NCBI GenBank assembly: GCA_023248155.1
Contig: JAHFFE010000007.1
Coordinates: forward strand, 4,401-68,400
Reading direction: 5' to 3'
Length of the DNA stretch: 64,000 bases
DNA from: Candidatus Omnitrophota bacterium
GTDB taxonomy: Bacteria; Omnitrophota; Gorgyraeia; 1-14-0-20-64-10
Of this stretch, positions 42,370 through 64,000 are shown piece after piece (within the stretch, counting starts at the first letter, position 1; every line of letters begins with the position of its first letter). The notes beneath the pieces were generated by a model that made no database searches, had not been told where the DNA came from, and worked only from the letters and a program-made list of their open reading frames with translations. The translations under genes were made by a program, and so were the position numbers.

Positions 42370-42803
42370 AGAAAAACCTTTTAGTGATGCTGGCACTTTC
42401 CGTTTCTCTGCTGTTCTCGGGCGTCGCATCGGCAGAGCATGATGCGAGCCATATGAAAATGGATGCCATCCAGAAACCGGTCGTTGCCAAAACACCGTCC
42501 CCGATTGAGGTGAAGCCGGGCCAGTTGATCCTTGAGGTCGACGGGCTTGTCTGCGCGGTCTGCGGTTACGGCATTGAGCGCAATGTCGCAAAACTTGACT
42601 TTATCGACCGGAAGAAATTCAGCCATGGCGTATTGACCGACGTCTACAATCAGCGGTTGGTTCTGGCGCTTGTGCCGGGAAAATCGGTGGATCTAAAAGC
42701 GCTTTCGGAAGCAATCAAACATGCCGGCTATCCGCTCAAGGCCGTCTACCTATTCTCGGCTGAGGGGCATCCAACACGGATTGAGGCGGCGGATATTCGA
42801 TGA
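42366..42803 (+). CDS. Periplasmic heavy-metal-binding (HMA-like, CxxC) protein
   Basis: A GGGAGG SD, a signal peptide, and LEVDGLVCAVCGYGIERNVAKL, which resembles an HMA GMxCxxC-type site. Confidence 0.5.
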   Translation: MKKNLLVMLALSVSLLFSGVASAEHDASHMKMDAIQKPVVAKTPSPIEVKPGQLILEVDGLVCAVCGYGIERNVAKLDFIDRKKFSHGVLTDVYNQRLVLALVPGKSVDLKALSEAIKHAGYPLKAVYLFSAEGHPTRIEAADIR

Positions 42804-43669: not shown

Positions 43670-45096
43670 TGATAACGATCCGCCGATTAGTTCCCGGAAT
43701 AGCGATCCTCTTTTTATTAGCGGGATGCGCAACGGTGTCCGCGAAAACGGATTTTTCCGGAGTGCAGAAAACGGTCGCTTCACGCACGGAAGCGCGCGTG
43801 CATTGGAATCAGGGCGGGCCCGAGGATGCGGCGGTGGCCCAGGCCATTGAATCAACATTGGGAAAAGAACTTACCGTAGAGGCCGCGGTGCAGCTGGCGC
43901 TCTTGAACAACCGGACTCTTCAGGCTACCTTCGAAGAATTAGGGATTGCCCAGGCCGATTTGGTGCAGGCCGGTCTGCTTAAGAATCCTGTCTTTGCAGG
44001 TCATGTCCGGTTTTCCGATCAGTCCGGTCAAGGGACCAACACAGAATTTTCGGTTTCACAGGATTTTATGGAACTTTTCGCGCGGTCCCTGCGGAAAAAA
44101 GTTGCCGCCGCGCAGCTTGAGAGTGTCCAGTTTCGGGTCAGCGATGCCGTGTTGAAATTGTCTGCCGAAGTTCGCTTGGCCTATTACGCTCTGCAAGGAG
44201 CGGAACATTCTCAAAAATCGTTTGAGACCATTGTGCAAGCGGCCCAGGCGGCCGTGGATCTGGCCGAGCGTCAGCACACTGCGGGCAATAGTAACGATTT
44301 GGAATTTGCCGGCGAACAGGCCGCTTTTCAGCAAGCCAATCTGGATCTGATACGAAGCCAGGCCGAATTGCTTTCTGCCCGCGAGAGATTGAATCGTCTG
44401 ATCGGTCTTACGGAAAATCCGTCATGGACCATTTCGGAAATAGTGCCCGCAATGCCTTCCAGGGAACCTTCCGGTGAAACGCTGGAACAACAGGCGCTTT
44501 CTCAGCGGCTGGATTTATTGGCTGCCCGGAACGATGTTCACGCATCGGAGCAAGTAGTGGATCTGGCCCGTCGGGGAGCGTGGCCGGCGGTTAACATCGG
44601 GGTGGATACCGAACGGGATCCGGATGGCACCCGCGTTACCGGCCCATCCTGGGAAGCGGAACTTCCGGTTTTTGATCAGAAGCAAACACCTGTTGCCAGG
44701 GCGCAGGCCCAGCTCCGCCAGAACCAGAACCGGGTTGCCGCTCTGGAAACCCAGATTCGCTCCGAAGTCCGCGCCTCCCTGAACCATGTTCAGGTATCCC
44801 GTCAGCTGATTGACCGGTATCGGGATGAAATGATTCCGCTTCGGGAGAAAATCGTCGCGGAAACTCAGAAACATTACAACTTTATGCTCAAAGGCGCTTT
44901 TCAACTTTTGCAGGCCAAACGCGATGAATTGAACGCCTACCGCGAATATATGAACGCTTTGCAGGATTACTGGCAGGCCCGAACCGATTTGGAGCGGGCC
45001 GTGGGCGGGCGCCTGCCGGTTTCCGAATCGAGCCCCATTCCGATGGCTCACCCGGCGGAACCAAAACAGGAAGCCGCGCACCACCATCATCATTAG
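43669..45096 (+). CDS. TolC/CusC-like outer membrane efflux factor (OMF) with a C-terminal His5 tail
   Basis: Lipoprotein-like N-terminus (LLAGC). The OMF signature LTVEAAVQLALLNNRTLQATFEELGIAQADLVQAGLLKNP and two helical repeats. It ends AAHHHHH-stop. Confidence 0.8.
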   Translation: MITIRRLVPGIAILFLLAGCATVSAKTDFSGVQKTVASRTEARVHWNQGGPEDAAVAQAIESTLGKELTVEAAVQLALLNNRTLQATFEELGIAQADLVQAGLLKNPVFAGHVRFSDQSGQGTNTEFSVSQDFMELFARSLRKKVAAAQLESVQFRVSDAVLKLSAEVRLAYYALQGAEHSQKSFETIVQAAQAAVDLAERQHTAGNSNDLEFAGEQAAFQQANLDLIRSQAELLSARERLNRLIGLTENPSWTISEIVPAMPSREPSGETLEQQALSQRLDLLAARNDVHASEQVVDLARRGAWPAVNIGVDTERDPDGTRVTGPSWEAELPVFDQKQTPVARAQAQLRQNQNRVAALETQIRSEVRASLNHVQVSRQLIDRYRDEMIPLREKIVAETQKHYNFMLKGAFQLLQAKRDELNAYREYMNALQDYWQARTDLERAVGGRLPVSESSPIPMAHPAEPKQEAAHHHHH

Positions 45097-45109
45097 AAGG
45101 GAATTTACG

Positions 45110-46507
45110 ATGGCGAAACTGATACTAAAACTTTGGGCAGTGACATTTTTGATTGCCATGGTAACTGCGCCTGCTATGGCAGATCCGACTGATATTCAGC
45201 CAGAGAAGGCCCAGAATTCATCAGCGTATACTCCCGTGGTCACCCCTAACGGAAGCACCCTTTGTTGGAAGATGGTGGATGGCGTTAAGGAGTTCCACCT
45301 GACTGTTGAGGAGGTTGAATGGGAGGTGGCTCCCGGCATGAAAATTAAGGCCTGGGGCTACAATGGCCAGACTCCCGGACCTACCCTCGAGGCGGTGGAA
45401 GGTGATCGGGTCCGCATTCTTGTGACGAACAAACTTCCTGAACCGACCGCGGTTCATTGGCACGGAGTCCTTCTTCCCAGCGGAATGGACGGCGTGCAGG
45501 GGCTTACTCAAAAACCGATTATGCCGGGTGAAACTTTCGCCTATGAATTCACGCTCAAGCAGCACGGCACCCAGATGTACCATTCCCACGGCGATGAAAT
45601 GGTCCAGATGGGGCTGGGGGCGATGGGGTTCTTTATCATTCATCCCAAAACTGCTCCCACTAAAATTGACCGGGACTACGCGATCTTTTTGAACGAATGG
45701 TTCGTGAAGCCGGGAACCTCCCGGCCCGACCCGAATGTCATGACCGACTTCAACCTCTTCACCTTCAACAGCCGCGCATTCCCCGGAACCGCTCCGCTTT
45801 TGGCAAGGCCGGGCGAGCGGGTTCGTATTCGTGTCGGGAATGTGGGCCAGGAGTTCCATGCGATTCACCTGCACGGGCATAATTTTAAAATGGTTGGCAC
45901 CGAGGGCGGGGATATTCCGGAATCGGCGCAGTATCCGGAAACAACCGTGGCGATCGGGCCGGGCCAGACGCGCGATTTCGAATTTACCGCCGTTCCCGGA
46001 GACTGGGCGTTTCACTGCCATCTGCGGCATCACCCGATGAACGCCATGGCGCATGATATTCCCAATGTGATCGGTGTCAGCCAAGAAGGCGTGGAGGAGA
46101 AAATCCAGGCGCTTCTGCCGGACTACATGGCGATGGGTGAGAGCGGAATGGGCGAACATTCCGAGCATGCCAAGCATATGCAAGGGCCGGCCAATACGCT
46201 TCCGATGATGGGCGGCGAGGGGCCTTTTGGAAATGTCGGTATGGGCGGCATGTTTACGGTGCTTAAAGTTCACGAGGATGTTCCCGATTTTAAAGACGCG
46301 GATGATTACACGAAACAAGTGAAACTGCCCGGCGATTTCGGATGGTACAAAAATCCCGCGGGAACCGTGGCCGAACTTGCTCCCGGATATGAAAACCAGT
46401 TAACAAAGGAGGGAACGATCTATACCTGCCCGATGCACCCGGAAGTCAGACAGGATAAACCCGGTGCTTGCCCCAAATGCGGCATGACTTTAGAAAAGGA
46501 GAAATAA
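45110..46507 (+). CDS. Multicopper oxidase (CopA/CueO-like) with a Met/His-rich segment and a C-terminal CPMHPE...CPKCGM metal-binding module
   Basis: Copper-site motifs HWHG, HSHGDEM and HCHLRHHPMNAMAH. Met-rich stretch MGESGMGEHSEHAKHMQGPANTLPMMGG. C-terminal [22 protein letters not shown]. Confidence 0.85.
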   Translation: MAKLILKLWAVTFLIAMVTAPAMADPTDIQPEKAQNSSAYTPVVTPNGSTLCWKMVDGVKEFHLTVEEVEWEVAPGMKIKAWGYNGQTPGPTLEAVEGDRVRILVTNKLPEPTAVHWHGVLLPSGMDGVQGLTQKPIMPGETFAYEFTLKQHGTQMYHSHGDEMVQMGLGAMGFFIIHPKTAPTKIDRDYAIFLNEWFVKPGTSRPDPNVMTDFNLFTFNSRAFPGTAPLLARPGERVRIRVGNVGQEFHAIHLHGHNFKMVGTEGGDIPESAQYPETTVAIGPGQTRDFEFTAVPGDWAFHCHLRHHPMNAMAHDIPNVIGVSQEGVEEKIQALLPDYMAMGESGMGEHSEHAKHMQGPANTLPMMGGEGPFGNVGMGGMFTVLKVHEDVPDFKDADDYTKQVKLPGDFGWYKNPAGTVAELAPGYENQLTKEGTIYTCPMHPEVRQDKPGACPKCGMTLEKEK

Positions 46508-46508
46508 A

Positions 46509-46907
46509 ATGCGCAACATAGTAATGGCCGGAATGGCGGCGGCGTTTTTGATGATGTTGGGTTTCTCGAATTTACCGGCGGCTGTGGCGCACGATGCCAA
46601 TATGCCGGGGATGGAGAACGGAAGGGATGTGGCTATTAAAGGGGAACTGGTGGATTCTCTCTGCTATGTGGCGATGGCCGGAAAAGGTTCGGGCCATAAA
46701 CAGTGCGCGATGGATTGCGCGAAAGCCGGAATTCCCGTCAGTATCGTTGAAGAGGGCACCGGTAAGTTGTATACGGTTCTTCCTAAAGAGGACAAGACAG
46801 GGTATCCTGCCAGCGTTATCAGCAAAATGGGCCAACAAGTAACGTTGAAGGGTGATCTTTACGAGACCGGCGGCAATAAGTATGTGACCGTCGAATCGGT
46901 GGAATAA
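46509..46907 (+). CDS. Periplasmic Cys/His/Met-containing protein, putative metal-binding
   Basis: A signal peptide, the motif CYVAMAGKGSGHKQCAMDCAKAG, and location inside the copper operon. Confidence 0.4.
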   Translation: MRNIVMAGMAAAFLMMLGFSNLPAAVAHDANMPGMENGRDVAIKGELVDSLCYVAMAGKGSGHKQCAMDCAKAGIPVSIVEEGTGKLYTVLPKEDKTGYPASVISKMGQQVTLKGDLYETGGNKYVTVESVE

Positions 46908-46912
46908 AGCCG

Positions 46913-47386
46913 ATGCTGTCCGGAGCGCGGCACCTGCAGAATATTCATCCGCTCATCGTTCACTTTCCGATAGCGTTTTTGATCGCTGCCGCGCTCTTTT
47001 ATTTTATGGCGTGGGTTTTTAATAAGGATGATTTTGCCAGAACAGGATTCCGGGTGCTTTTGCTCGGGGCCCTGTCTTTGGCGGTCGCCGTCTGGACAGG
47101 GCTTCGTGCCGAAGACGGAGTCATGGTGGCACTGGATGTGAGGCAGAAGCTTCTTTTGCCCCACGAGCAATTCATGATTGCCACGGCGGTTTTGTGCGCT
47201 ATCGTTACGCTGTGGGCGATTGTCGGAAGGCCTTTTCCGAAAAAAGGAAGAGTCCTGTTTTTAGCGCTGCTTCTCGCGATGGTCATTACGATGACGATCG
47301 GCGCTGATTTTGGCGGGCAGCTTGTTTACGATTACAATGCCGGCGGTAGCTTGCCGCAGCCGATTCACTTTAAAATAGTTCAATGA
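46913..47386 (+). CDS. Small integral membrane protein (DUF2231-like, [10 protein letters not shown] motif)
   Basis: About four predicted TM helices and a conserved [13 protein letters not shown]-terminal helix. It lies between the periplasmic protein and the ATPase. Confidence 0.5.
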
Positions 47387-49494
47387 AATACACCTGTCCG
47401 ATGCATCCGGAAATTATTTTAGATCAACCCGGTTCTTGCCCGAAATGCGGGATGTTTTTGGAGCTTAAAGACGCCGCGGGTTCTCCCGAAGACCTCGAAT
47501 ACAGACAGATGTCGCGCCGGTTCTGGGCGAGCCTCATACTGTCCGTTCCGATTATTTTACTCGCGATCCCAGAATTGATTCCGGGCAATCCTTTGGAAAA
47601 AATTGTTTCCATGCGCGTTATCAACTGGATTGAATTTGCTTTCGCTACGCCGGTGGTGCTCTGGGGCGGGGGGTGGTTTTTTGAGCGCGGGGTTTTATCC
47701 GTTGCGCGGCGAAGCCTTAACATGTTTACGCTGATTGCCTTGGGCGTAGGAGCGGCTTATGGGTACAGCGTGATCGCGCTGGTTTTCCCTTCCGTATTTC
47801 CGAGCGCTTTCCAAAGTCACGGCGGTGAAGTCCCGGTTTATTTCGAAGCCGCGGCAGCGATCACGGTGCTGGTTATTTTGGGTCAGCTCCTGGAGCTCAG
47901 GGCGCGCCGCCAGACCAGTGACGCCATCAAGGCGCTTCTTAATCTTGCGCCAAAGACGGCAAGGGTGATTCGGGATAACAACAACGAAGAAGATATCCCA
48001 TTGGAACAGGTAGCGGTGGGAGATAGGCTTCGCGTGCGTCCCGGCGAAAGTATTCCCACGGACGGCGTGGTTCTGGAAGGATCCAGCTCTGTGGATGAGT
48101 CGATGGTGACCGGGGAACCCATTCCCGTGGAAAAAGTCGCGGGGTCTAAAGTCGTGGGAGGGACGGTCAGCGGCACCGGCAGTTTTATTATGCGCGCCGA
48201 GCGCGTGGGAGCCGACACGCTCCTTTCTAAAATCGTTCATATGGTGAGCGAGGCGCAAAGAAGCCGCGCCCCCATTCAGCGCCTTGTCGACAGTGTCTCA
48301 GCCTATTTTGTGCCGGCGGTTATTCTTGCGGCGATTTCGACCTCTGTTATTTGGGGATTTTTCGGACCTGAACCGCGAATGGCTTATGCGATCGTGAATG
48401 CCGTCGCCGTGTTGATCATCGCTTGCCCGTGCGCTTTGGGACTGGCCACGCCCATGTCCATTATGGTCGGTGTCGGCCGCGGCGCGACGATGGGCATTCT
48501 GATCAAGAACGCCGAAGCCCTTGAGACTTTCCGGAAAGTCGACACGCTTATTTTCGACAAAACAGGCACGCTCACGGAAGGCAAGCCCAGACTTGTTTCC
48601 ATTCTGCCCGAAGCAGGAGTAAGCGAAGAAGAATTTCTGCATCTCGCGGCCAGCCTTGAACGGGGGAGTGAACACCCGCTGGCGCAGGCGATCGTGAAGG
48701 GAGCCGAATCCAAAAATGTCCGGTTCGTCGAAACCAAAGCTTTTAAATCAGTGACGGGTAAAGGCGTGGCGGGAACCGTCGACGGAAAAAATATCGTTCT
48801 TGGAAATCAGGAATGGATCGAAGAGCTGGGCATTTCATCGGCGCGGTTGATACCCAAGGCCGACGAATTGCGGAAGGACGGACAGACCGTCATGTTTTTA
48901 GCGGATAAGGGCCGTCTGCTTGGAATTCTCGGCGTTTCAGATTCCATCAAGGCTTCTACTCCCGAAGCGATCCGGATGCTGCATAACGAGGGACTGCGTT
49001 TAATCATGGTCACCGGAGACAATCAAGTGACTGCCGATGCGGTAGCGCGCAAGCTCGGCATTGATGAGGTGCGGGCCGGAATATTGCCCGAGAAAAAAGG
49101 AGAAATTATCAGGGAACTCCAGGCCAAAGGGCATTTGGTTGCCATGGCTGGTGACGGTGTCAATGATGCCCCCGCGCTGGCGCAGGCAAATGTGGGCATC
49201 GCGATGGGCAGCGGAACGGATGTCGCCATCGAAAGCGCGGGCGTGACGCTGGTGAAAGGAGATCTGCGGGGCATCGCCAAGGCAAGGAAATTAAGCCGTG
49301 CGACCATGCGCAATATCCGCGAAAACCTCTTTTTCGCTTTCGTTTATAATATTCTCGGAGTTCCCGTCTCGGCCGGGATTCTCTATCCATTTTTCGGCAT
49401 CCTGCTTTCTCCGGTCATCGCGAGCACGGCGATGAGTTTTAGTTCGGTATCGGTCATCGTGAACGCTTTACGATTGCGCAGGGTTTCGCTTTAG
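47383..49494 (+). CDS. copA: Copper-translocating P1B-type ATPase with an N-terminal CPMHPE...CPKCGM metal-binding module
   Basis: [24 protein letters not shown], the CPC motif ([11 protein letters not shown]), [15 protein letters not shown], and 8 TM segments. Confidence 0.9.
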
Positions 49495-49497
49495 CCT

Positions 49498-50364
49498 ATG
49501 TCCGAACATTCACACGATCCGTTGACAACAAGGGCCGCCTCGCCGCTGGCGGGCGCGTTGATCATTACGGCCACGGTCATGGTGTTGGAAATCATTGCCG
49601 GCCTTCTTTCGAACAGCCTGGCTCTTTTAGCGGATGCCGGGCATATGGCCACCGATGCTGCGGCGCTCGGAATGAGTTTGTTCGCCTGCTGGATTGCCCG
49701 TCAGCCGGCAACCCGGACCAAAACCTATGGGTTCTACCGGACCGAGATTTTAGCGGCGCTCTTGAATGGGCTGACCCTCTGGCTGGTTGTGGCATGGATC
49801 ATCTATCACGCTGTTCAGCGGTTCGTTCATCCTCCCGTTGTTCGCGCCCCGATGATGCTGGTAACGGCTGTCATTGGTCTGGCGGCGAACCTGGGGTGCG
49901 CCTGGCTGTTGAGGCCCTCTCAGGCGCAAAGTCTCAATATGCGCAGCGCTTATCTGCATGTCTTATCGGATGCGCTGGGTTCTGTCAGCGTCATCGCGGC
50001 CGCGGTGGTTATCCAAATGACTGGCTGGTCCCTGGCAGATCCCTTGGCGAGTCTTCTCGTTTGCGGCCTTATTCTCTGGAGTTCATGGAAGTTGATTTCT
50101 CAGTCGGTCAATATTTTACTGGAAGGGACGCCGCCCCATATCGATGCCATGGAAGTGACGCGGGCCATGCAAGCCGTTGCAGGGGTGCGATCGGTTCACG
50201 ATGTTCATATCTGGACGATTACTTCGGGGATGGAGGCGATGAGCGCCCATGTGGTGGTTGATAATTCGAACGACAGCCGGGGATTGTTGGATCGCCTGAA
50301 TACGCTTCTGTGTGACCGGTTCAAGATCCATCACACGACCATTCAGTTGGAAGAAGCTCTGTGA
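49498..50364 (+). CDS. Cation diffusion facilitator (CzcD-type) metal efflux transporter
   Basis: His-rich N-terminus (SEHSHD), the CDF signature LLSNSLALLADAGHMATD, six TM segments and a C-terminal cytoplasmic domain. Confidence 0.85.
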   Translation: MSEHSHDPLTTRAASPLAGALIITATVMVLEIIAGLLSNSLALLADAGHMATDAAALGMSLFACWIARQPATRTKTYGFYRTEILAALLNGLTLWLVVAWIIYHAVQRFVHPPVVRAPMMLVTAVIGLAANLGCAWLLRPSQAQSLNMRSAYLHVLSDALGSVSVIAAAVVIQMTGWSLADPLASLLVCGLILWSSWKLISQSVNILLEGTPPHIDAMEVTRAMQAVAGVRSVHDVHIWTITSGMEAMSAHVVVDNSNDSRGLLDRLNTLLCDRFKIHHTTIQLEEAL

Positions 50365-54758: not shown

Positions 54759-56239
54759 GCGAGGTCACGATGGAAAAAAAGCATTCGCCGGGCCGGATCC
54801 TTGAACCGTTGCTGAAGGATCTCGGTCAGGACGGCCGGCGTGCGTTCCAGCTTCCTAAAACCGATCTGCCGGCTGTTGCCCCGGAGACGCAAATTCCGTC
54901 GGACTGGGTGCGCAGCAAACCGGCCGCGCTGCCGGAGCTCAGCGAGCGCGACCTGGTCAAACATTTCATGCGGCTGGCCCATTTGAATTTCTCGGTCGAG
55001 ACTAATTTTTATCCGCTCGGTTCCTGCACGATGAAATACAATCCGCGCGTTCATGAAGAGATCGCTGGTCTCTCCGGTTTCGCGCAGCTGCATCCGTACG
55101 CGCCCGATTCTCTGTCGCAAGGCACGCTGCAACTGTTGTTTGAACTGGAACGGATGCTTGCGGAAGTTCTCGGCATGGATGCCGTCACATTGCAGCCGGC
55201 CGCCGGCGCGCACGGCGAATTCACGGCGCTGTTAATGGCGCGCGCCTATCATGAGGCGCAGGGCCGTCCGCGCAAAAAAGTAGTGGTGACCGATTCATCG
55301 CACGGAACCAACCCGGCCAGCGCCGCTCTCTGCGGGTTTGATGTCGTCGAAGTGAAATCGAACGCGCGCGGCCGCGTTTCGCTGGAGTCGCTCGCGTCGG
55401 TCGTCGATCACGACACCGCGGTTTTTATGATGACCAACCCGAACACGCTCGGCTTGTTCGAAGAAGAAGTGATGAAAGTGACACAGCTCGTTCATGACAA
55501 AGGCGGACTGGTTTACATGGACGGCGCGAATATGAACGCGTTGCTGGGGCAGGTGCGCCCCGGCGATATGGGTTTCGACATGGTCCATGTGAATATCCAT
55601 AAAACATTTTCGATTCCGCATGGCAGCGGCGGCCCCGGCGGCGGGCCCGTCGGCGTGAAGGCCCATTTGAAGCCGTTCCTGCCAGCGCCGATGGTGGCCT
55701 CCGGCTCGGCTGGTTACCGCCTGGAATCGCCGGGTCCGCAGTCGATCGGCCGCGTCCGCTCGTTCTTCGGGAATGTCGGCGCGCTGGTACGCGCTTACGC
55801 CTACATTCGCAGTCTCGGAACCGACGGCTTGAAACAGGTTTCAGAAGGCGCGATCTTAAACGCCAACTACCTGAAGGAACTTTTGCGCGGCATCTACCCG
55901 ATTGCCGTCGATGAATCGTGCATGCATGAATTCATTGCCTCAGCCAAAGAAATGAAAGCCAGCCAGGGGATCAAGGCGATGGATATCGCCAAGCGCCTGC
56001 TTGATTACGGTTTTTACGCGCCGACAATCTGCTTCCCGCTGATCGTCGAAGAAGCGCTGATGATCGAGCCGTCCGAAACCGAATCGCGGCAGACGCTCGA
56101 ATCATTTGCCGACGCGCTGGCCAAGATCAAGCACGAATCGGAAGAAACGCCAGAGCGGCTTCGCACGGCGCCGCACCGGATGCCGGTTTCCCGCCTCGAC
56201 GAAGTTCAAGCCGCGCGCGAGCCAAATCTGCGTTGGTAG
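54755..56239 (+). CDS. gcvPB: Glycine dehydrogenase (decarboxylating) subunit 2
   Basis: A 494-aa C-terminal-subunit P protein with PLP-lysine context (HVNIHKTFSIPHGGGGPG). Confidence 0.9.
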   Translation: MSEVTMEKKHSPGRILEPLLKDLGQDGRRAFQLPKTDLPAVAPETQIPSDWVRSKPAALPELSERDLVKHFMRLAHLNFSVETNFYPLGSCTMKYNPRVHEEIAGLSGFAQLHPYAPDSLSQGTLQLLFELERMLAEVLGMDAVTLQPAAGAHGEFTALLMARAYHEAQGRPRKKVVVTDSSHGTNPASAALCGFDVVEVKSNARGRVSLESLASVVDHDTAVFMMTNPNTLGLFEEEVMKVTQLVHDKGGLVYMDGANMNALLGQVRPGDMGFDMVHVNIHKTFSIPHGSGGPGGGPVGVKAHLKPFLPAPMVASGSAGYRLESPGPQSIGRVRSFFGNVGALVRAYAYIRSLGTDGLKQVSEGAILNANYLKELLRGIYPIAVDESCMHEFIASAKEMKASQGIKAMDIAKRLLDYGFYAPTICFPLIVEEALMIEPSETESRQTLESFADALAKIKHESEETPERLRTAPHRMPVSRLDEVQAAREPNLRW

Positions 56240-56772
56240 GTTTTTGCGTTTGGTTCACGGGACTGCCTGCTTCCGGAAAGACGACTCACGCCCAGTTGCT
56301 TGCTCAATCCCTCAAGCGCCAATCCTGCCCAGTTGAACTATTCGATGGGGACCGTCTCCGTCAGGAGATTTCCCGCGGGTTAGGTTTCAGCAAGCAGGAC
56401 AGGGATCTCCATGTTCAACGGGTAGGGGAACTCGCGTTAGAGCGCGTGCGGGCCGGACAGGTGGCCGTCTGCGCGTTGGTGAGCCCCTACCGGGTGGCGC
56501 GCGATCACTGCCGCGCGATGATAGGAACCGACCGGTTTATTGAAGTTTTTGTGCAGGCTCCTTTATCGGAGTGTGAGCGCAGAGATCCTAAGGGATTGTA
56601 CGCAAAAGCCCGCTCAGGGAAATTGCCCGGCTTCACCGGTATCAGTGATCCGTATGAACCGCCGTTGGCCCCCGACCTCGTTTTAGATACAGCGGTTTGT
56701 TCCATACAGGAAAATGTTCAACGGCTGGACTCTTATCTGACGCATCAGGGATTTCTGCCATGGCCCCACTAG
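56233..56772 (+). CDS. cysC: Adenylylsulfate (APS) kinase
   Basis: A TTG start overlaps gcvPB. P-loop VWFTGLPASGKTT (APS kinase: IWLTGLSGSGKST), plus DGD..R and LSExERRDPKGLY motifs. Confidence 0.7.
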   Translation: MVGFCVWFTGLPASGKTTHAQLLAQSLKRQSCPVELFDGDRLRQEISRGLGFSKQDRDLHVQRVGELALERVRAGQVAVCALVSPYRVARDHCRAMIGTDRFIEVFVQAPLSECERRDPKGLYAKARSGKLPGFTGISDPYEPPLAPDLVLDTAVCSIQENVQRLDSYLTHQGFLPWPH

Positions 56773-57390: not shown

Positions 57391-58101
57391 TTGCAATACT
57401 CCGTTGTTATTCCAGTGCACAATGAACGTGAATCGATCCGCATTTTGCATGAAGAGTTAGAGGAAGTCCTGAGATTTCTTGGCCGGACTTACGAAATTAT
57501 TTTCGTGGACGACGGGTCAGCGGATGGAACGACAGAAGTTCTGCGATCTTTGTGTTCCAGTCATCCGGAACTGCTCGCGGTCTATTTTCCGAATCGGCGC
57601 GGGCAGTCTGCGGCTTTTGAGACAGGATTTGCGCTTTCCTCAGGGGATGTGGTCATTACTCTGGATGCGGACCTTCAAAACAACCCGCGGGATATCCCCC
57701 GTTTGTTGGAAAAACTGGAAGAAGGCTACGATGTGGTCTGCGGATGGAGAACGCACCGTTGCGACCCCTGGCATCGCAGGTGGAGTTCTGGGGCTGCCAA
57801 CTTTATGCGCCGTAGATTTTTAGGCGAGAAAATACATGATGTCGGGTGCTCTTTAAGGGTTTACCGAAAACAAGTGCTCCGGAAATTGAGTTTGGGCGCG
57901 TATGGTCATCGTTTTATAACCGCTTTGCTCTTGAGATCAGGTTTGAAGGTTTGTGAGGTTTCGGTCCGGCATCACCCTCGCCGGTTTGGCCGTTCAAAAT
58001 ATAACTTAAGAAACCGGTTTTATGAAAGCACAGCGGGATTTGTTCGTCTTCTTCTCAGTCGATCGCCGGATCTATTTGATCAAAAGCAGTGTTCCTCCTG
58101 A
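57391..58101 (+). CDS. GT2-family glycosyltransferase, polyprenyl-phosphate sugar synthase type (ArnC/DPM1-like)
   Basis: A TTG start. YSVVIPVHNERESI...YEIIFVDDGSADGT...DADLQNNP fits GT2 DxD/ED topology. The C-terminal region has a predicted TM segment. Confidence 0.8.
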   Translation: MQYSVVIPVHNERESIRILHEELEEVLRFLGRTYEIIFVDDGSADGTTEVLRSLCSSHPELLAVYFPNRRGQSAAFETGFALSSGDVVITLDADLQNNPRDIPRLLEKLEEGYDVVCGWRTHRCDPWHRRWSSGAANFMRRRFLGEKIHDVGCSLRVYRKQVLRKLSLGAYGHRFITALLLRSGLKVCEVSVRHHPRRFGRSKYNLRNRFYESTAGFVRLLLSRSPDLFDQKQCSS

Positions 58102-59534
58102 ATTCCATTTTAAGCCGTCCTATTCTCGGCCGGCCAAGCGCGGCCAGAATCCGCGCAATTCTCTTTCTTGTTGTAGTCATGGGCCTGGCGTTTCGTATCT
58201 TTGGTTTATCGTTGGAATCTTTCTGGCGCGATGAGATACGGACCGTTACGGTGTCGAGCTGGCCGATCCCACAGCTGATTTTCGACCGGCTTCACCGCGG
58301 ACATAGTCCCGTTTATTTTCTTCTCATGCACGGCTGGTTGCGGCTTGTCCCTCTCACGGAGTTTTGGATACGGTTTCCGTCCGCGGTTATGGGGGCCGCG
58401 AGCATTCCATTGATGTTTTTTGTTGGCAGGTCATTGCTGGGAACTCGAGCAGCTCTTGTTGCCGCTCTTTTTTTCTCTCTCAATACTTTTCAAATCGAAT
58501 ATGCGCAGGAAGCCCGGATGTACAGCGCTGTGGTTTTCTTCGGACTCTTATCTACGAGTTGTCTTCTGAATGTCCTCAAATTCCGAACGAGATACGGGTG
58601 GAACGCGTACGGAATTGCCTCCTTGGTAGGGCTTTCGTTGAGCGCGTCTTATTTCTTTGTATTGATTGGACAGGTTTTCTTGGGGCAGGCGCGTCTTGCG
58701 GTTGATTCCGTCGATCGGAAACGTTTTTATGGCTGGTTGTTTTCTTTGATCGTTGTTTTTGTCCTTCTCTGGTCAGTGATTTTCTTTCTTTCCCGAGGTT
58801 ACGGCATACTAAGCGTTGCTCCGGCCCATTTTTCTGTTTGGGAGTGGCTCCAGGGAATCTTTCAAAAATTTTGGTCTCTTGAGTACTTGCCAATAGACCT
58901 GAATCTTACGGCATTCGTGATTTTCGGACTTATTCCTGGAATTCTTGGGTACGAGTTGTGGGTTTCAGGTTTATCCCGTGAGCGGATCGCCCTGTTGTTC
59001 TGGTTATTTTTTCCCGTGGTGTTGCTGGCGCTCTTATCGCCGTGCATTCGGCATGATATCCGATACCTATTGTTTCCTGCCTGCGCCTGGCCGCTTCTTT
59101 TGGGAGCTTTTTTTGCTGTTAGGAGACGAAGCGCAATCAGGGTGGGTGTGTTCACGGTGGTTCTTTGCTTGAATTTGTTAAACCTGGCCTACTATTATTT
59201 TCTGCCGCAAAAACCTTCCTGGAGAGAAATCGGATCTTACGCAATGCAGCACGCTCGGGGTAGAGAACCGATGTACGTCTATCCGGAGGACCTGGTTTAT
59301 GACTTGAGCTACTATTATAAAAGCGGCGAGGTCCGACCCCTCCGATTGCAATCCGATTTTACCAATCGAGAGATATTGGATGCCGGCGGCGGGTGGATTG
59401 TTTTGGTTTGGCAGTCGCACGGTTCCGATCCGGGTTTGCGGCGATGGCTGTACTTGATCGAACGCCGTTTCGGCGCTGTGTATCACCGTTCATGGAGAGG
59501 GGCTCAGCTTTATCATTATGAATCCTCGCTCTGA
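58089..59534 (+). CDS. Integral membrane glycosyltransferase of the PMT_2/ArnT (GT39/GT83-like) family
   Basis: A multi-TM 481-aa protein with a first-loop WRDE motif (FWRDEIRT). It overlaps the GT2 gene. This is the classic pairing of a polyprenyl-P-sugar synthase with a transferase. Confidence 0.65.
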   Translation: MFLLNSILSRPILGRPSAARIRAILFLVVVMGLAFRIFGLSLESFWRDEIRTVTVSSWPIPQLIFDRLHRGHSPVYFLLMHGWLRLVPLTEFWIRFPSAVMGAASIPLMFFVGRSLLGTRAALVAALFFSLNTFQIEYAQEARMYSAVVFFGLLSTSCLLNVLKFRTRYGWNAYGIASLVGLSLSASYFFVLIGQVFLGQARLAVDSVDRKRFYGWLFSLIVVFVLLWSVIFFLSRGYGILSVAPAHFSVWEWLQGIFQKFWSLEYLPIDLNLTAFVIFGLIPGILGYELWVSGLSRERIALLFWLFFPVVLLALLSPCIRHDIRYLLFPACAWPLLLGAFFAVRRRSAIRVGVFTVVLCLNLLNLAYYYFLPQKPSWREIGSYAMQHARGREPMYVYPEDLVYDLSYYYKSGEVRPLRLQSDFTNREILDAGGGWIVLVWQSHGSDPGLRRWLYLIERRFGAVYHRSWRGAQLYHYESSL

Positions 59535-60249
59535 GCTAAAAAAGCACTACGCTAAAATCGGTGATTCGACAAACGATTTTAGATGCCAGGCCTTGTTTGC
59601 CTGGATATGCCGTCATCTGGAACAATCTCCCGTGTTGGATTTTGGGTGCGGGACGGGCGGATTCCTCCGTTTTCTGAAGAACAAAAAAGGCTGGCTAGGA
59701 GTGGGGCTGGATCCCGACCCCGAGATGGTTCTCCGTGCGAAAGCGTTTGATCCCGCGCTGGATTTTTGTGTAGGCGGGATAGGAACCGCTGCAGCTCTCC
59801 AAGGCGCTTTCGGGACGATTGTCCTTATCGATGTGCTGGAGCATATTTCCGATGATGAGCAGACGCTCGTTCAACTTCAGGATAAACTTCTGCCTGGCGG
59901 GCGGCTGATCGTTGCCGTTCCTGCCTATCCCGGATTGTTCGGTCAAAGGGATTTAGCCATAGGACATTACCGGCGATATCAAAAAGCGGAGCTGGTCAAA
60001 AAAATCGAGAAAGCCGGATATGCCGTTCGACAAATTCGGTATTGGAATATGCTCGGTGTTATTCCTTACGCAGTCAGCCAAAAACTCTTGGGAAAGACCG
60101 AGGGTTGCTCATGGAGGAATGCGGACTCTGGGGGATTGCTGGAAAAAATTATGCGGCAGATTCTTCATGGCTGGTACGTCTGTGTAGAGAACAACATCAG
60201 CGCGGGCTGGGGCCTCACCTTGCTGTGCGTTGCGTCGAAGGTGAGTTAA
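59518..60249 (+). CDS. Class I SAM-dependent methyltransferase
   Basis: Motif I VLDFGCGTGGF and motif II LIVAVPA. Confidence 0.8.
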   Translation: MNPRSELKKHYAKIGDSTNDFRCQALFAWICRHLEQSPVLDFGCGTGGFLRFLKNKKGWLGVGLDPDPEMVLRAKAFDPALDFCVGGIGTAAALQGAFGTIVLIDVLEHISDDEQTLVQLQDKLLPGGRLIVAVPAYPGLFGQRDLAIGHYRRYQKAELVKKIEKAGYAVRQIRYWNMLGVIPYAVSQKLLGKTEGCSWRNADSGGLLEKIMRQILHGWYVCVENNISAGWGLTLLCVASKVS

Positions 60250-62207
60250 AACCCCTCTCCGTAAACCTGAGTGAAGTCGGTATTCCGGATGAATGCTTCG
60301 ACTTCTTCGTAATTTTCTATTTGTTCCTGCAGTGGAAGCAAAGATTGTTTCACGAGATTGCTCGATACCCGTCTTTTTGGCAATTCCAGAAAATCAAATA
60401 TTTTAGAGTCAAATGTTTTCTGGGGATCCAGCGAAAACTCCTCATAGGACAACCACAGACATTTTCTTTTTTTATTTAAACATTGAGCCGCGTGGCTAAG
60501 GTCGGCCTTGATCCCATTGTGGTAGGCCAATGCCTGATCAGGAAGTAACTTTATCGCGACGGGGCGGGGTATTTCATCGCAGTCATTACTTTGCAGCCAT
60601 ACTCCCGTTTTAGTCGCTGTGAGATAGGACACGAATTGGTTTAGGGTATTTAGACGATAAAGAACAATCCATTTCACCTCTGGAAATTCGCGGCTAAGTT
60701 CTTGAAAAGATATTTTTAGCCGTCTTAGATGACCGAAGAAAATCTTGAGTCCGCATACAGTTGCGTTACAGTTATTTAAGGTATAGCGCAAGTGACGGAA
60801 AACGTCTTTTTTAGAAGTAAAACATTTGCCCAGGCCGTAGGTTTGAGCGGTGGACAGGACTTCATCTGCGAAAGAGGCTGCAGGATGGGAGTTCAGATAA
60901 TTAATGAGAAGGTTGCTGCCGGTTCTTTCATGGCAAAGAATGAACACCGGTTTTTCGAGTTTCTTTTTTTTGAGGTAATAATGAGCGGCAATTCTTATTC
61001 TAAATAAACTTCGCTTAAGGCCAAGAGGGAGTTTCTTTTTGAGGTCTGCGAAAATTGTCGTAAATTTATTCCCAACAGGTTTTATTAAGTTGAGCCACAG
61101 GTTTTTCCAATGCATTAGGTACATTGCCAAGCCGCTTTTTTTTCCGGCATAGTATGCCGGATTGGGAAGGAAATATCCGGCTGTGTAGCGGATCCGGTCG
61201 ATCGGTGACCGAAGCTGTCTCGATAAATCAGTTTTCGGAACACGTTCTTTTTGATAAATTTCCGAAGTTTTTTCAAATATGAAGAATTGAATCAGCCTCT
61301 CCGTCGTCCGATCGTTTTTGAAAGTGTTTTGAACGTCTTCCAATAGCACTTTGATTTTTTTTCTGGAAGCAGCGGCTGGTTCTGGGAACTGGCTTAAGAT
61401 TTTTTCCACCGCCGTGTTTCCAAGCAGGTTCATGACGAGTGCCAGGTCCAAAAGTTGGATCAGGCTCGGGTTGTACATTTCTGCGGTGTGAAGCGCTAGA
61501 TGGCCGGCTGCGTCCTCGTCCGAGAATACCCGAACATTTTCTCCGAAAGCGGGGTAAGGTTTTGAATTCGCCCACGCTTCTTCGAGATTCATTTCAATTA
61601 CATGGCCGCCGATTGGGTAGTTGAGCCGCCAGTGTAAATCAATGTCCAACCCATCTTTTTCAAACGAAGCGCGGCCGCCGGGATTTTCCTTCAGCAGCTT
61701 ATGGGGGGCAAAGTGTATCTGGTCATGCCACCGATTTTTAGTCGGATATTTCCTTAAACCGAAGCCTTCACCTAGAAGGAGTTGTTCGACGGCGGTTAGA
61801 TCGCTTTCTCGGATTAGGATATCGATGTCAGCCATTTCCCTGAACGACATCTTTTCGTATACGCGCAGGCTCAGGTCGATTCCTTTAAGAGGGATGACCG
61901 GAATATTGTGATGAGAAAGATCCAGGGCGATCTTCTTGAACTGCGACAGCTTGTGATGATTGTGCCATTCGGACTGCATCAGTGTCTTGGTCAATGCTGC
62001 GCACACTTTTGGGTCCATGGAAGAAAACGCCCCGTTCTTCTCCAGCACAAAAGCGACGAATCCAAGTACGCGCTGGTTTCGTCCGATACGGAGCATTTCT
62101 GCCCAATTCAAAACAGAAAGATCCAGAATGTTTGGATCCAGATGTTCTGTTTGAGGTGAGGCGATCCACCGAAGGCATTGAAGGATCAATTTCATTTCAC
62201 TTTCCAT
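60246..62207 (-). CDS. Fusion of an uncharacterised nucleotidyltransferase (NTP_transf_5-like) with a Stf0-type sulfotransferase domain
   Basis: A 653-aa minus-strand ORF in an AT-richer region. The N-terminal half has a DxD-like nucleotidyltransferase pattern (REMADIDILIRESD). The C-terminal half has a PAPS-binding-like FILCHERTGSNLL (Stf0: RSGST-LL). Confidence 0.6.
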   Translation of the reverse strand: MESEMKLILQCLRWIASPQTEHLDPNILDLSVLNWAEMLRIGRNQRVLGFVAFVLEKNGAFSSMDPKVCAALTKTLMQSEWHNHHKLSQFKKIALDLSHHNIPVIPLKGIDLSLRVYEKMSFREMADIDILIRESDLTAVEQLLLGEGFGLRKYPTKNRWHDQIHFAPHKLLKENPGGRASFEKDGLDIDLHWRLNYPIGGHVIEMNLEEAWANSKPYPAFGENVRVFSDEDAAGHLALHTAEMYNPSLIQLLDLALVMNLLGNTAVEKILSQFPEPAAASRKKIKVLLEDVQNTFKNDRTTERLIQFFIFEKTSEIYQKERVPKTDLSRQLRSPIDRIRYTAGYFLPNPAYYAGKKSGLAMYLMHWKNLWLNLIKPVGNKFTTIFADLKKKLPLGLKRSLFRIRIAAHYYLKKKKLEKPVFILCHERTGSNLLINYLNSHPAASFADEVLSTAQTYGLGKCFTSKKDVFRHLRYTLNNCNATVCGLKIFFGHLRRLKISFQELSREFPEVKWIVLYRLNTLNQFVSYLTATKTGVWLQSNDCDEIPRPVAIKLLPDQALAYHNGIKADLSHAAQCLNKKRKCLWLSYEEFSLDPQKTFDSKIFDFLELPKRRVSSNLVKQSLLPLQEQIENYEEVEAFIRNTDFTQVYGEGF

Positions 62208-62248: not shown

Positions 62249-62506
62249 ATGGCTACGGTAGACAAGAAAAAAGTACTTTGGCGGGAGGTGGCCGATCAAA
62301 CGGTCATTCTACGGATGGAGACTGGATTCTCTTATTCACTCGATGGGGCCGCCCGTTTGATCTGGAGCGGAGTGGTGATGGGAAAGAGTTCGGAAGAGAT
62401 TGCCGCGGAATTGTCTCGGGCCTATGCGATTGATGAGCGTACCTCCAAACAAGATGTCCAGGCGTTTTTGGAAGATCTCTGCAAAGAAGGCTTGATTGAT
62501 CCCTAG
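62249..62506 (+). CDS. PqqD-family RiPP recognition element (RRE) protein 1
   Basis: An 85-aa ORF with VILRMETGFSYSLDGAARLIWSGVVMGKSSEEIAAEL...FLEDLCKEGLI, the typical PqqD/B1 pattern. Confidence 0.7.
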   Translation: MATVDKKKVLWREVADQTVILRMETGFSYSLDGAARLIWSGVVMGKSSEEIAAELSRAYAIDERTSKQDVQAFLEDLCKEGLIDP

Positions 62507-62529: not shown

Positions 62530-62853
62530 ATGAAAATGAATAACGCAAAGAAGGGCCCTTTTCTCTGCAGGGCGGAGCACGTGGTTTGGAAGATTATCAA
62601 GGATAAGGTTGTCCTGCTGAATCTCGACAGCGGAGCTTATTTTGAAACGAATGGATTGGGTCTGGATATTTTTAAGCTGTGCGATGGAAAAAAAACTCTT
62701 GAAGAGATCGCTTCCATTGTCAGTTCCAAATTCAAGAAAGGAACGGACCGGGTTTACAAAGAATCTAAAAGTTTTATAGAGGAGCTTGAGAAACAGAACT
62801 TGGTGAAGGCTCTAAAAAAGTCTCTGTCCGTTATTCGCCCGATAAGAAGGTAA
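62530..62853 (+). CDS. PqqD-family RiPP recognition element (RRE) protein 2
   Basis: A 107-aa ORF with VVLLNLDSGAYFETNGLGLDIFKLCDGKKTLEEIASIV...FIEELEKQNLV. Confidence 0.7.
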   Translation: MKMNNAKKGPFLCRAEHVVWKIIKDKVVLLNLDSGAYFETNGLGLDIFKLCDGKKTLEEIASIVSSKFKKGTDRVYKESKSFIEELEKQNLVKALKKSLSVIRPIRR

Positions 62854-62938
62854 CTTGGCGCAGGTTGCCGAGGTGTTTTAGTACCGGTTTTTGGTACTTA
62901 GTAGATTTGGTCTTCTTTTGATCCTTCTTTTCACTCAT
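62831..62938 (-). CDS. 35-aa peptide with a lasso-type leader motif (candidate RRE-binding leader/precursor-like peptide)
   Basis: The minus-strand ORF encodes MSEKKDQKKTKSTKYQKPVLKHLGNLRQVTFLSGE. A strong SD GAGGTGG lies 5 nt upstream of the ATG. Its own promoter is listed below. YQKPVLKHLGNLRQVTF matches YxxPxLx3Gx5Tx exactly. It overlaps the last 23 nt of PqqD-like gene 2 on the other strand. Confidence 0.4.
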   Translation of the reverse strand: MSEKKDQKKTKSTKYQKPVLKHLGNLRQVTFLSGE

Positions 62939-62962
62939 AGGTTCCACCTCGCTTTAGGATAG

Positions 62963-62992
62963 AATATAGCAGTGAAACGAACGCCCGTCAAG
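62963..62992 (-). promoter_or_regulatory. Sigma70-like promoter (minus strand) for the 35-aa peptide
   Basis: On the minus strand: TTGACG (plus 62986..62991), an exact 17-nt spacer, then TATATT (plus 62963..62968), ~25 nt upstream of the peptide ATG. Confidence 0.5.
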
Positions 62993-63691
62993 ATTTCTGT
63001 CATTATGCCCGCTTACAACGCTGCCCTTACCATCCGTGCGGCTATTCGTTCGGTTCTTCGTCAAAAAGGCCCATCATTTGAATTATTGATAGCCGACGAT
63101 GCTTCCACCGATTCGACTTGGGGCTGTATTCAGAAATTCCGGCAGGATCCAAGAATCCGATCGTTTCGTTTCCGGCGCAATCGAGGAGTAGCCGCGGCCA
63201 GTAATTATCTGATCAGCGAGGCGAGAGGGAAGTATCTCTCGTCCTGCGATGCCGACGATATGCTTCTGCCCGGCAATTTGCGCCGGCTCGCGCATGTTTT
63301 GGACACCAGTCCTTCTTGTGGAGTGGCCTATGCCGACTCGTTGATCGTATCCTCCTCTCGAACACGAAGGATGGTGTCCCGATCTGCCATTGAGACTTTC
63401 TGGGAGCTTCTCGGCGGACGCTTTACCAACGGTGGGACGCTGATCCGACGATCTTTGGTCAAAAGAATAGGCGGCTATCGTACTCAATTTGTTTTTCTTG
63501 AGGACTGCGACCTTTTTGTCCGCTTGTCCGAGATCACGAAGTTTTACTACGTCAAAGGTAAACCGCTGTATTGTCAGAGGAAGACAAAAGGCTCTCTTTC
63601 CGATCAGTCTCAAAGAAAATTGAGACAAGTTTCCCGGATCATTCTTCGTGATGCGCTCAAGAGGCGGTATGGCTACCAAGCACAGTGGTGA
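62972..63691 (+). CDS. GT2-family glycosyltransferase
   Basis: A GTG start. KISVIMPAYNAALTI...ELLIADDASTDST...CDADD fits GT2 motifs. Confidence 0.8.
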   Translation: MKRTPVKISVIMPAYNAALTIRAAIRSVLRQKGPSFELLIADDASTDSTWGCIQKFRQDPRIRSFRFRRNRGVAAASNYLISEARGKYLSSCDADDMLLPGNLRRLAHVLDTSPSCGVAYADSLIVSSSRTRRMVSRSAIETFWELLGGRFTNGGTLIRRSLVKRIGGYRTQFVFLEDCDLFVRLSEITKFYYVKGKPLYCQRKTKGSLSDQSQRKLRQVSRIILRDALKRRYGYQAQW

Positions 63692-64000
63692 GTCCGGCGT
63701 ACCGGTTCTTATCTCCGGCTCGGCGGCGAATCAGTTAAATCTGGCTTCGGCTTTTGGTTCTAGCATGAAACCCTTCATTCGCTCCGGCGCCGAACTTGTG
63801 TTGGAGCATGTTTCGCCGGCTCGCATTCGGCCGGGCGATATCATCGCCTATGCCGCTCTCTCAGGGGCATCCGTCACGCACCGCGTTGTCAAAGTGTTCA
63901 TTAAAGAAAAAACACTTCTTTTTCTGACCAAAGGGGACAACAAGTCCATTCCAGACCCGATTGTTCATCAAAAACAAATTCTGGGCAGGGTTGTGAAAAT
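63669..64000 (+). CDS. S26-family (signal peptidase I-like) serine peptidase, 3'-truncated by the window end
   Basis: The ATG at 63669 overlaps the GT2 stop. FGSSMKPFIRSG matches the SPase I box B (SxSMxPT, Ser nucleophile). TKGDNKSIPD matches the GDNRxxSxD box. It is open to the window end. Confidence 0.5.
   Translation, partial: MATKHSGESGVPVLISGSAANQLNLASAFGSSMKPFIRSGAELVLEHVSPARIRPGDIIAYAALSGASVTHRVVKVFIKEKTLLFLTKGDNKSIPDPIVHQKQILGRVVK

Follow-up and report, generated by a model that had tools for sequence, protein, structure and literature searches.

In a 64,000-nucleotide stretch of the genome of Candidatus Omnitrophota bacterium (GenBank assembly GCA_023248155.1, contig JAHFFE010000007.1, positions 4,401 to 68,400 of the forward strand; hereafter the window), a short open reading frame (ORF) on the minus strand, 62831..62938, starts with an ATG at 62938 and encodes a peptide of 35 residues, MSEKKDQKKTKSTKYQKPVLKHLGNLRQVTFLSGE, followed by TAA. 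This ORF is almost certainly a real gene of the precursor type. The decisive evidence for the gene is comparative: judged from their sequences, about 35 homologues keep its frame and its stop, and the 14 relatives checked keep its promoter. As to function, the reading that we favour, and that is on balance the likely one, is that it is the precursor ("A") gene of a pathway resembling those of RiPPs (peptides synthesized by the ribosome and modified after translation), derived from lasso-type machinery and related to the pathways of linear polyphosphorylated peptides (LPPs), in which Ser33 would be O-modified and the leader clipped off. That the pathway is an LPP- or lasso-related one, dependent on a RiPP recognition element (RRE) and with processing by an S26 peptidase, is a conclusion that we hold with good confidence.

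The features that an earlier note had read from this DNA, namely the ORF, its TTGACG-17-TATATT promoter, its GAGGTGG Shine-Dalgarno sequence, the leader motif and the overlap with the second of two PqqD genes, are all present. The peptide begins with a Lys-rich N-terminus, followed by Y15-x-x-P18-x-L20, the invariant LGNLRQVT at residues 23-30 and the tail F31-L32-S33-G34-E35. It matches exactly the lasso leader consensus YxxPxLx3Gx5Tx, through Y15, P18, L20, G24 and T30, and the same residues are invariant in the family. A relaxed version of the motif turns up four times in the six frames of the window, so that the match alone is weak evidence. An independent gene caller likewise annotated the 35-residue ORF, on a metagenome contig of this organism from ENA, which has 17.5 kb and extends 2 kb past the end of the window. 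The Shine-Dalgarno sequence (62944..62950, minus strand) lies 5 nt upstream of the ATG, and an in-frame GTG at 62947, upstream of that ATG, falls within it. The sigma-70-type promoter (62963..62991, minus strand) consists of a -35 hexamer TTGACG at 62991-62986, a 17-nt spacer and a TG-extended -10 hexamer TATATT at 62968-62963; it has 10 of 12 consensus matches, where the shuffled 1-kb region averages 0.8 promoter-like sites. This promoter overlaps the 5' end of a divergent gene for a family 2 glycosyltransferase (GT2), and the 3' end of the peptide gene overlaps PqqD gene 2, on the opposite strand, tail-to-tail by 23 nt.

A phmmer search of 1.84 billion representative proteins gave one true homologue, ending in KYQKPTLKRLGNLRQITFLS and a stop, which keeps the same arrangement, with a GT2 gene diverging from the peptide gene and a PqqD gene converging on it; the second match was a spurious hit to a tetratricopeptide repeat. 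Further copies were recovered from DNA. With the degenerate pattern P-x-L-x2-L-G-N-L-R-Q-x-T-F, 12 of 14 matches in metagenome contigs were true and two were due to chance. A looser pattern applied to species-representative genomes gave 16 matches, ten of them chance ones, and four true copies, which belong to two Planctomycetia metagenome-assembled genomes (MAGs), one Omnitrophica MAG and one unclassified MAG. With a profile search of 5.8 billion proteins, the number of distinct peptides in the family rises to about 35. When the peptide, padded to 40 residues, or the second PqqD protein (PqqD2) served as query in word-indexed protein searches, the query itself was the only match, and a PDB search with the peptide returned nothing relevant. 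In literature searches we found no account of the peptide sequence, of the HprK-related kinase or of the combination of RRE, glycosyltransferase and sulfotransferase.

Among 19 distinct DNA copies, compared over the 20 codons from K-Y-Q-K-P to the tail, pS was 0.79 and pN 0.13, which gives a pN/pS (nonsynonymous to synonymous) ratio of 0.16; on the codons left free by the search patterns the ratio was 0.28. The synonymous variation is found in the Leu, Lys, Tyr and Thr codons, and the Ser of the tail is encoded by TCG, TCC, TCT or AGC. This codon comparison shows purifying selection on the peptide frame. The earlier note would have doubted the gene if the overlapping PqqD C-terminus were conserved and not the minus-strand frame; the reverse was found, the peptide frame being conserved and the overlapping PqqD tail variable. 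The promoter is kept as well: of the 14 relatives examined, 13 have an exact TTGACA placed 17 nt upstream of a TAnnnT hexamer that resembles a -10 element. Three of the loci with a conserved promoter have a peptide gene that does not adjoin the GT2 gene, and therefore the coding constraint on GT2 cannot explain the conservation. In relatives no more than 7-11 nt separate the end of the -10 hexamer from the ATG, a spacing that implies transcripts without a leader, while the window copy has a 24-nt spacer holding its Shine-Dalgarno sequence; this sequence is specific to the window, as most relatives look leaderless.

Two observations concern the DNA of the conserved block itself. A terminator-like hairpin with a T-run lies on the plus strand at 62849..62869, directly after the PqqD2 stop, and is the antisense of the G-N-L-R-Q-V-T codons. 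In the related loci L003-L030 (L and P numbers are labels of related loci and related proteins), base 1 of the Leu codon and base 3 of the Gln codon tend to change together, as CTG/CAG, TTG/CAA, TTA/CAA and some CTG/CAA pairs, giving AAYYTG-CGC-CARRTT palindromes. This covariation may reflect a conserved small hairpin, or chance or shared ancestry.

The peptides end in a uniform way. The search of related genomes for homologous peptides and their core lengths, which the earlier note had suggested, gave the roughly 35 peptides, and all of them stop 3-5 residues after the invariant LGNLRQ(I/V)T, with TAA, TAG or TGA as stop codon. The tails are FLS, FGS, FASL, FVSI, FLSF, FLSA, FLSGE, SFS, SFSSY, AFY, AFT, TLS, SLT and ASY, the FLSGE of the window being the longest of its group. 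Counted from the conserved Thr, position +3 holds Ser, Thr or Tyr in every peptide, and in most of them the chain ends there. A conserved hydroxyl residue whose distance from the leader does not vary suggests that this position is O-modified, and the balance tips slightly towards this residue, Ser33 in the window, being the modified site. Only four residues follow Phe31 in the window peptide, and 2-4 in its relatives. The judgement of the earlier note that the core is far too short for a lasso ring holds: a lasso core has about 14 or more residues, with Asp or Glu at position 7-9 for the macrolactam. Its placing of the core boundary, with a cut after Phe31 that leaves the core LSGE, may need correcting: by analogy with the LPP peptidase LppS the cut may instead follow Thr30, which would give the core FLSGE with Ser at position 3.

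The genes around the peptide gene are conserved with it. In the window, PqqD2 (62530..62853, plus strand, 107 residues; Pfam PqqD 8.6e-13) is followed beyond the peptide gene by the GT2 gene called GT2b (62972..63691, plus strand; PF00535 5.3e-30), which is divergent from the peptide gene and is its closest conserved enzyme neighbour, with orthologs at 40-65% identity in relatives. GT2b is followed by the 5' part of a gene fusing an S26 peptidase with a GNAT domain (63648..64000, plus strand); it runs off the window, and the whole gene, of 517 residues, is found at L001 10677-12230. The S26 part is an archaeal/ER-type, LppS-like signal peptidase I, whose domain, with its Ser, His and Asp residues, lies inside the window. 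Beyond the S26-GNAT gene there is another GT2, at the end of the available sequence. On the other side lie PqqD1 (62249..62506, plus strand, 85 residues; Pfam PqqD 6.1e-14), which appears to be accessory, and a fusion of an NTP_transf_5 nucleotidyltransferase with a sulfotransferase (NT-ST; 60246..62207, minus strand, 653 residues; PF14907 5.6e-38, PF13469 9.7e-11). The nucleotidyltransferase occupies residues 34-272 of this fusion and the sulfotransferase about 420-650, with a PAPS-loop-like RTGS (PAPS, 3'-phosphoadenosine-5'-phosphosulfate); a PDB search gave no solved homologue for it.

Wherever flanking sequence was available, tblastn against the loci of the relatives recovered a core set made of PqqD2, GT2b, S26 with or without GNAT, a further GT2 (GT2c), NTP_transf_5 and the sulfotransferase, and this neighbourhood spans Planctomycetia and Omnitrophica MAGs and metagenomes. 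In each of the 19 relative loci with sufficient flanking sequence, a PqqD2 ortholog lies at most 3 kb from the peptide gene, usually tail-to-tail with it, while a PqqD1 ortholog was found in only two (L005 and L015). The nucleotidyltransferase and the sulfotransferase are separate genes in L005, L008, L011, L014, L026, L027 and L034 and are fused in the window; S26 is fused to GNAT in most loci and to the sulfotransferase in L005, and a GT2 is fused to an HprK-like domain in L026. These differing fusions link the enzymes and the peptidase in one pathway. In the subfamily with the tail ASY (L035 and L036), an HprK-like kinase lies next to GT2b and there is no sulfotransferase, so that kinase and sulfotransferase alternate between subfamilies. 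HprK-like domains are thus present in L035/L036 and L026, the matches to HprK_rel_A being of 51 bits in L026 and 29 bits in L035 against a cutoff of 200, and MsbA-like exporters in L026 and L038.

Other genes accompany the core set in some relatives, among them further GT2 and GT4, MBOAT, deacetylase and methyltransferase genes. In L005 (2594-5079), L011 (6910-9387) and L028 (2511-4988), an MBOAT gene (AlgI/DltB-like) and a partner of 340-416 residues without a Pfam match are inserted between PqqD2 and the peptide gene or GT2b, which suggests O-acylation as an optional tailoring step. AsnB genes with glutamine-amidotransferase domains are found at L035 10415-12172, L036 8545-10302 and L027 5800-7761 (all minus strand), directly next to PqqD in the ASY subfamily and 5 kb away in L027; the L035 copy starts with MCGIAG, with Cys2 as the nucleophile. 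C-terminal amidation and amidation of a uronic acid are possibilities for the role of these genes. At L026 7266-7334 (Omnitrophica bacterium GWA2_52_8), the peptide gene keeps only its last 22 codons, EAKYQKPALKRLGNLRHITFLS and a stop, with an in-frame stop upstream, no start codon and an abutting sulfotransferase gene; this may be a recent deletion or an assembly problem. The high-GC relative L016 carries a Transglut_core3 gene (4890-6071, minus strand) next to PqqD2, an ABC-2 transporter pair and two mini-precursors, with the tails FGS and AFT; the second (about 4440-4590, plus strand) ends in LGNLRQITAFT and is convergent with PqqD2.

Peptides with the same leader occur outside this neighbourhood. 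In Actinomycetota and Thermoleophilia MAGs, the leader Y-K-K-P-E-L-V-R-L-G-N-L-K-E-I-T-F precedes a 15-residue Cys-rich core, ECSGWQCSVVVPPAP (L032 2444-2611; L033, minus strand, near 7055-7105; L037 10001-10132; P0010, P0017, P0020 and P0032), with Cys at +3 after the Thr. These loci adjoin rhodanese-domain, GtrA-like or thioredoxin/thioredoxin-reductase genes and have no PqqD within the available flanks; L032, L033 and P0020, considered as full-length relatives, were set aside as a different system, on the grounds of their rhodanese, GtrA or thioredoxin neighbours and the lack of an RRE nearby. P0025, a protein of 58 residues on a 1.3-kb contig, is a canonical-looking lasso precursor in which ATGYFGQAD comes after YRKPELVRLGNLREMTR, so that core position 9 is Asp. 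Apparently genuine lasso peptides thus use this leader type too.

For the machinery, we compared the cluster with that of the LPPs (lppA-K-B-S-D-N, Paenibacillus alginolyticus; Popov et al., Nat Commun 2026, PMC13381572), which are found in Bacillota, within capsule loci. Their core genes encode a SipW-like signal peptidase I (LppS), a discrete RRE (LppB), an HprK-like kinase (LppK), an NTP transferase (LppN) and an MsbA-like exporter, and their precursors carry the motif YxxPxVLxHQxIxFETxxS (PMC13381572). LppS, aided by LppB, cuts LppA after T(-1), LppK polyphosphorylates Ser3 of the core, and LppN was inactive in the heterologous host (PMC13381572). In the solved LPP and lasso complexes the RREs contact the YxxPxL segment of the leader (PMC13381572). 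The nearest solved structure to both PqqD proteins is the lasso RRE TbiB1, at 6.6e-06 for PqqD2 and 1e-08 for PqqD1, the latter also matching the chains 9x90_B and 9x8z_B. Against the NCBIfam lasso_PqqD models the two proteins score 40.5 and 28.5 bits, with cutoffs of 70-80, and against PqqD_rel_X PqqD1 scores 15.8 bits, with a cutoff of 35. The equivalent of LppB D70, which binds the leader Tyr, is acidic in all 19 PqqD1 and PqqD2 sequences, and that of N33, which fixes the Pro, is N, D, S, E or G, mostly Asn or Asp. From these alignments, the RREs are predicted to be equipped to bind a YxxP leader. The S26 domain scores 59.4 bits against NCBIfam sigpep_I_arch, above the cutoff of 51.85, and aligns with LppS by BLASTP with 31% identity over 84 residues (E 1e-14), the equivalents of S29, H68 and D93 being aligned; this triad is invariant in nine orthologs. 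PDB matches of the fusion protein were SEC11A/C for the peptidase domain and NAA30, an N-alpha-acetyltransferase, for the GNAT domain (E 7.5e-05).

The system thus resembles the LPP clusters in its discrete PqqD-type RRE with the Tyr-binding acidic residue kept, its LppS-like archaeal-type signal peptidase I with the triad, its NTP_transf_5-type transferase (a family-level likeness), the lack of a macrolactam cyclase, the polysaccharide-type surroundings and, in some relatives, an MsbA-like exporter or an HprK-like kinase. When the peptide is extended without gaps from YxxP, Thr30 and Ser33 fall in the register of LppA (Y-16, P-13, T-1, S+3), and the hydrophobic residue at -11 is also in register with the LPP motif. 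Unlike the LPPs, the family has a core of 3-5 residues, compared with about 20-45 in the LPP cores of Supplementary Data 1, and a leader middle of LKRLGNLRQIT in place of VLxHQxIxFET. It also differs in having, in the window and most relatives, a sulfotransferase where LPP clusters have the kinase, fused to the nucleotidyltransferase or to the peptidase, a peptidase fused to GNAT, and GT2 genes in the conserved core. The LPPs are reported to be restricted to Bacillota, Planctomycetota being represented in that dataset by RRE-less Brocadia peptidases only (PMC13381572), whereas the present peptides come from Planctomycetia, Omnitrophica and environmental MAGs.

An HprK-like kinase phosphorylates the C-terminal Ser of the lasso peptides paeninodin and pseudomycoidin, which is then glycosylated via a nucleotidyltransferase, and sulfotransferase and nucleotidyltransferase genes are recurrent accessories of such clusters (PMC8498205, PMC6993621). 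The window shares with them the lasso-type leader, an RRE akin to the B1 type and a C-terminal Ser as the presumed tailoring target; unlike them, it has no lasso core, cyclase or B2 protease, and its peptide cannot form a macrolactam ring. The leader agrees in the same way with the lasso pair TbiA/TbiB1 (PDB 5v1u/5v1v), and L016 keeps the B2-like protease next to its RRE, while in the window that protease and the cyclase are absent and four residues follow the lasso-type cleavage site. The cluster is also unlike the HPr-rel-A system of Haft (TIGR04352/04353/04355), which combines an HprK-related kinase A or B with the PqqD_rel_X chaperone; the PqqD1 score and the HprK_rel_A matches given above lie below the curated cutoffs. 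Mycofactocin is made from a C-terminal Val-Tyr with the PqqD-like MftB and the GT2 enzyme MftF, and crocagin from a C-terminal tripeptide; both resemble the present peptide in the long recognition sequence, the use of 2-3 C-terminal residues and the PqqD-type RRE. The GT2 enzymes show a weak resemblance to MftF, matching NCBIfam mycofact_glyco at 1.7e-17 and 2.4e-12, well short of the cutoff. The radical SAM and other defining enzymes of these two systems are missing here, and O-modification is presumed in place of C-C or C-N crosslinking.

Considering these likenesses, the pathway could work as follows. The peptide is nearly all leader, and its substrate part would be only T-x-x-(S/T/Y), here T30-F-L-S33-G-E. 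Its strong sigma-70 promoter would drive transcription of the gene on its own, in antisense to those of the enzymes. PqqD2 would capture the leader through YxxPxL, and the invariant LGNLRQ(I/V)T block would present the C-terminus to the enzymes. The hydroxyl of Ser33 would be O-modified by the sulfotransferase, standing in for the HprK-like kinase of LPP and paeninodin clusters, and by the fused NTP_transf_5 enzyme; this role of the sulfotransferase is drawn from the analogy with LppK acting on Ser3, and that Ser33 is specifically sulfated is tentative and somewhat doubtful. The PAPS could possibly be supplied by the product of a nearby APS (adenylylsulfate) kinase gene (56233..56772, plus strand; Pfam APS_kinase 2.5e-55), which is seen at the window locus only and has no ortholog in the loci of the relatives. 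The GT2 enzymes would probably elaborate the modification. The S26 peptidase would cut the leader after Thr30, as in LPPs, or possibly after Phe31, as in lasso peptides (compare the B2 protease of L016), and the fused GNAT would acetylate the N-terminus so exposed. What results would be a modified peptide of very small size or a glycan linked to a peptide. Of the three readings that the earlier note had left side by side, that of a novel type of substrate on which the adjacent sulfotransferase or glycosyltransferase enzymes act is the best supported, its chemical part being what we infer.

Several points weigh against this reading. L016 lacks S26 and carries instead a lasso-type B2 (Transglut_core3) protease, and the cut would be expected there after Phe. 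The profile-profile comparison with LPP precursors was not significant, hhalign aligning only the eight columns of the YxxPxL octet (E 0.09), and the leader consensus, with Gly at +9, is nearer to lasso peptides than to LPPs. The cluster runs off the window, and off the ENA contig 2 kb later, so that a cyclase farther downstream is possible; no exporter was found in the window and those 2 kb, where the cluster sequence ends, and none of the ORFs scanned in the window or L001 encodes an HprK-like protein. The cluster sits among polysaccharide-type genes, some of which may serve an unrelated glycan pathway, and the sulfotransferase may act on a sugar instead; to our knowledge, there is no precedent for Ser O-sulfation of a RiPP. 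Which residue is modified and by what chemistry, where the leader is cut, whether the N-terminus is acetylated and what is finally made are all inferred, from sequence comparison and analogy.

The other two readings of the earlier note fare less well. A truncated or degenerate lasso precursor, be it a pseudogene or an artefact in which the TAA stems from faulty sequencing or assembly and the core continues in frame downstream, could account for the exact lasso leader consensus, for the lasso B1 proteins being nearest to both PqqDs and for the same leader type on P0025. The comparative data refute it, and we give it practically no weight: about 35 homologues from different phyla stop 3-5 residues past the Thr with different stop codons, the in-frame sequence past the stop is unrelated between loci, where it is the antisense of the variable PqqD tail, and purifying selection on the peptide is strong. 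In addition, the SGGxDS motif of the Asn-synthetase-type cyclase is absent from the window and loci L001-L017, PF13471 (Transglut_core3, B2 protease) has no match among the L001 proteins or the window ORFs submitted to Pfam, Asn_synthase has none among these window ORFs (two giant ORFs were left unscanned), and the AsnB proteins of L027 and L035 carry glutamine-amidotransferase domains. A leader-only decoy or regulator, an unmodified peptide that would bind the PqqDs and titrate or regulate an RRE pathway whose substrate is encoded elsewhere, fits a peptide that is nearly all leader, with its own strong promoter antisense to the enzyme genes, and the two RREs of the window. We consider it improbable, as the invariant part, and with it the most conserved block, runs well past the RRE-contacting YxxPxL to the T-x-x-S/T/Y at the C-terminus, no locus has a second motif-bearing ORF with a longer core (L016 has only the second mini-precursor), and a leader peptidase is conserved together with the peptide and occurs in fusions with other enzymes of the pathway.

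Closer to the favoured reading is peptide-primed glycan assembly, in which the RRE would hold the peptide as a primer or carrier, the terminal Ser, Thr or Tyr hydroxyl would bear a sulfated, acetylated and methylated oligo- or polysaccharide built by GT2 and GT4 enzymes, and the S26 peptidase would then release the glycan on a short peptide stub for export. The loci are rich in glycan enzymes (2-4 GT2s, double-GT2 proteins, GT4s, a PMT_2-type GT-C, MBOAT, a polysaccharide deacetylase, a capsule-synthesis protein, FkbM and SAM (S-adenosylmethionine) methyltransferases, and AsnB), LPP clusters likewise lie in capsule loci (PMC13381572), and a single conserved hydroxyl at the extreme C-terminus has the look of a priming site. 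We nevertheless regard this account as unlikely, because the glycan genes vary by locus, while the set of RRE, S26-GNAT, GT2b, nucleotidyltransferase and sulfotransferase is constant, and because we know of no precedent for RRE-guided glycan priming. It overlaps with the reading preferred here, the early steps being the same and only the product differing. In a combined form, which is a minority possibility, the terminal hydroxyl would be sulfated or nucleotidylated and prime a decorated glycan in the cytoplasm, and the signal-peptidase-like enzyme would clip off an N-acetylated stub of 2-5 residues. If true, a sulfated glycoconjugate or a tiny sulfo-glycopeptide would be made by a route that a peptide primes, and this would be the first RiPP-type pathway with a sulfotransferase replacing the class-defining kinase.

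As for the rest of the window, a GT2 gene (57391-58101), a PMT_2-type GT-C gene (58089-59534) and a SAM methyltransferase gene (59518-60249), all on the plus strand and assigned by Pfam, are probable accessory glycan-tailoring genes; adjacency is the basis on which they probably belong to the pathway. The genes of the first 52 kb are unrelated to the cluster. Four consecutive giant ORFs, of 3051, 1957, 3917 and 1312 residues, occupy 5227-35734 on the plus strand; a non-ribosomal peptide synthetase or polyketide synthase nature was rejected for them, the 3051-residue ORF having only a marginal SIS match and the 1312-residue ORF no Pfam match (these are the two scanned). They are followed by a subtilase S8 gene (35831-37744) and genes for a BatD-like and an OmpA-like protein. 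A heavy-metal resistance block at 40937-50364 comprises an ECF-type sigma factor, a Metal_resist protein, an outer-membrane efflux protein, a multicopper oxidase with an HMBD domain, a P-type ATPase and a CDF transporter. After it come DsbD and thioredoxin genes and then gcvT/H/P1/P2 with a lipoate-ligase-like gene, immediately upstream of the cluster.

With respect to what was known of LPPs and of paeninodin-type tailoring, the new elements are the minimal T-x-x-S/T/Y core, the sulfotransferase in place of the kinase, the fusion of peptidase and GNAT and the range outside Bacillota. The 35-residue peptide with one invariant hydroxyl offers a very simple substrate for probing the widespread NTP_transf_5 enzymes and the sulfotransferases of lasso and LPP clusters. 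The LPP study left open what such NTP transferases do, and the peptide family could address this question; the natural alternation of Ser, Thr and Tyr at the presumed modified site, and of kinase and sulfotransferase between subfamilies, leads to testable predictions. If the favoured reading is true, the lasso-type leader and RRE machinery would have been re-used down to essentially one functional core residue, and the LPP class, so far described from Bacillota, would take in Planctomycetota, Omnitrophota and further uncultured lineages, sulfation there replacing phosphorylation.

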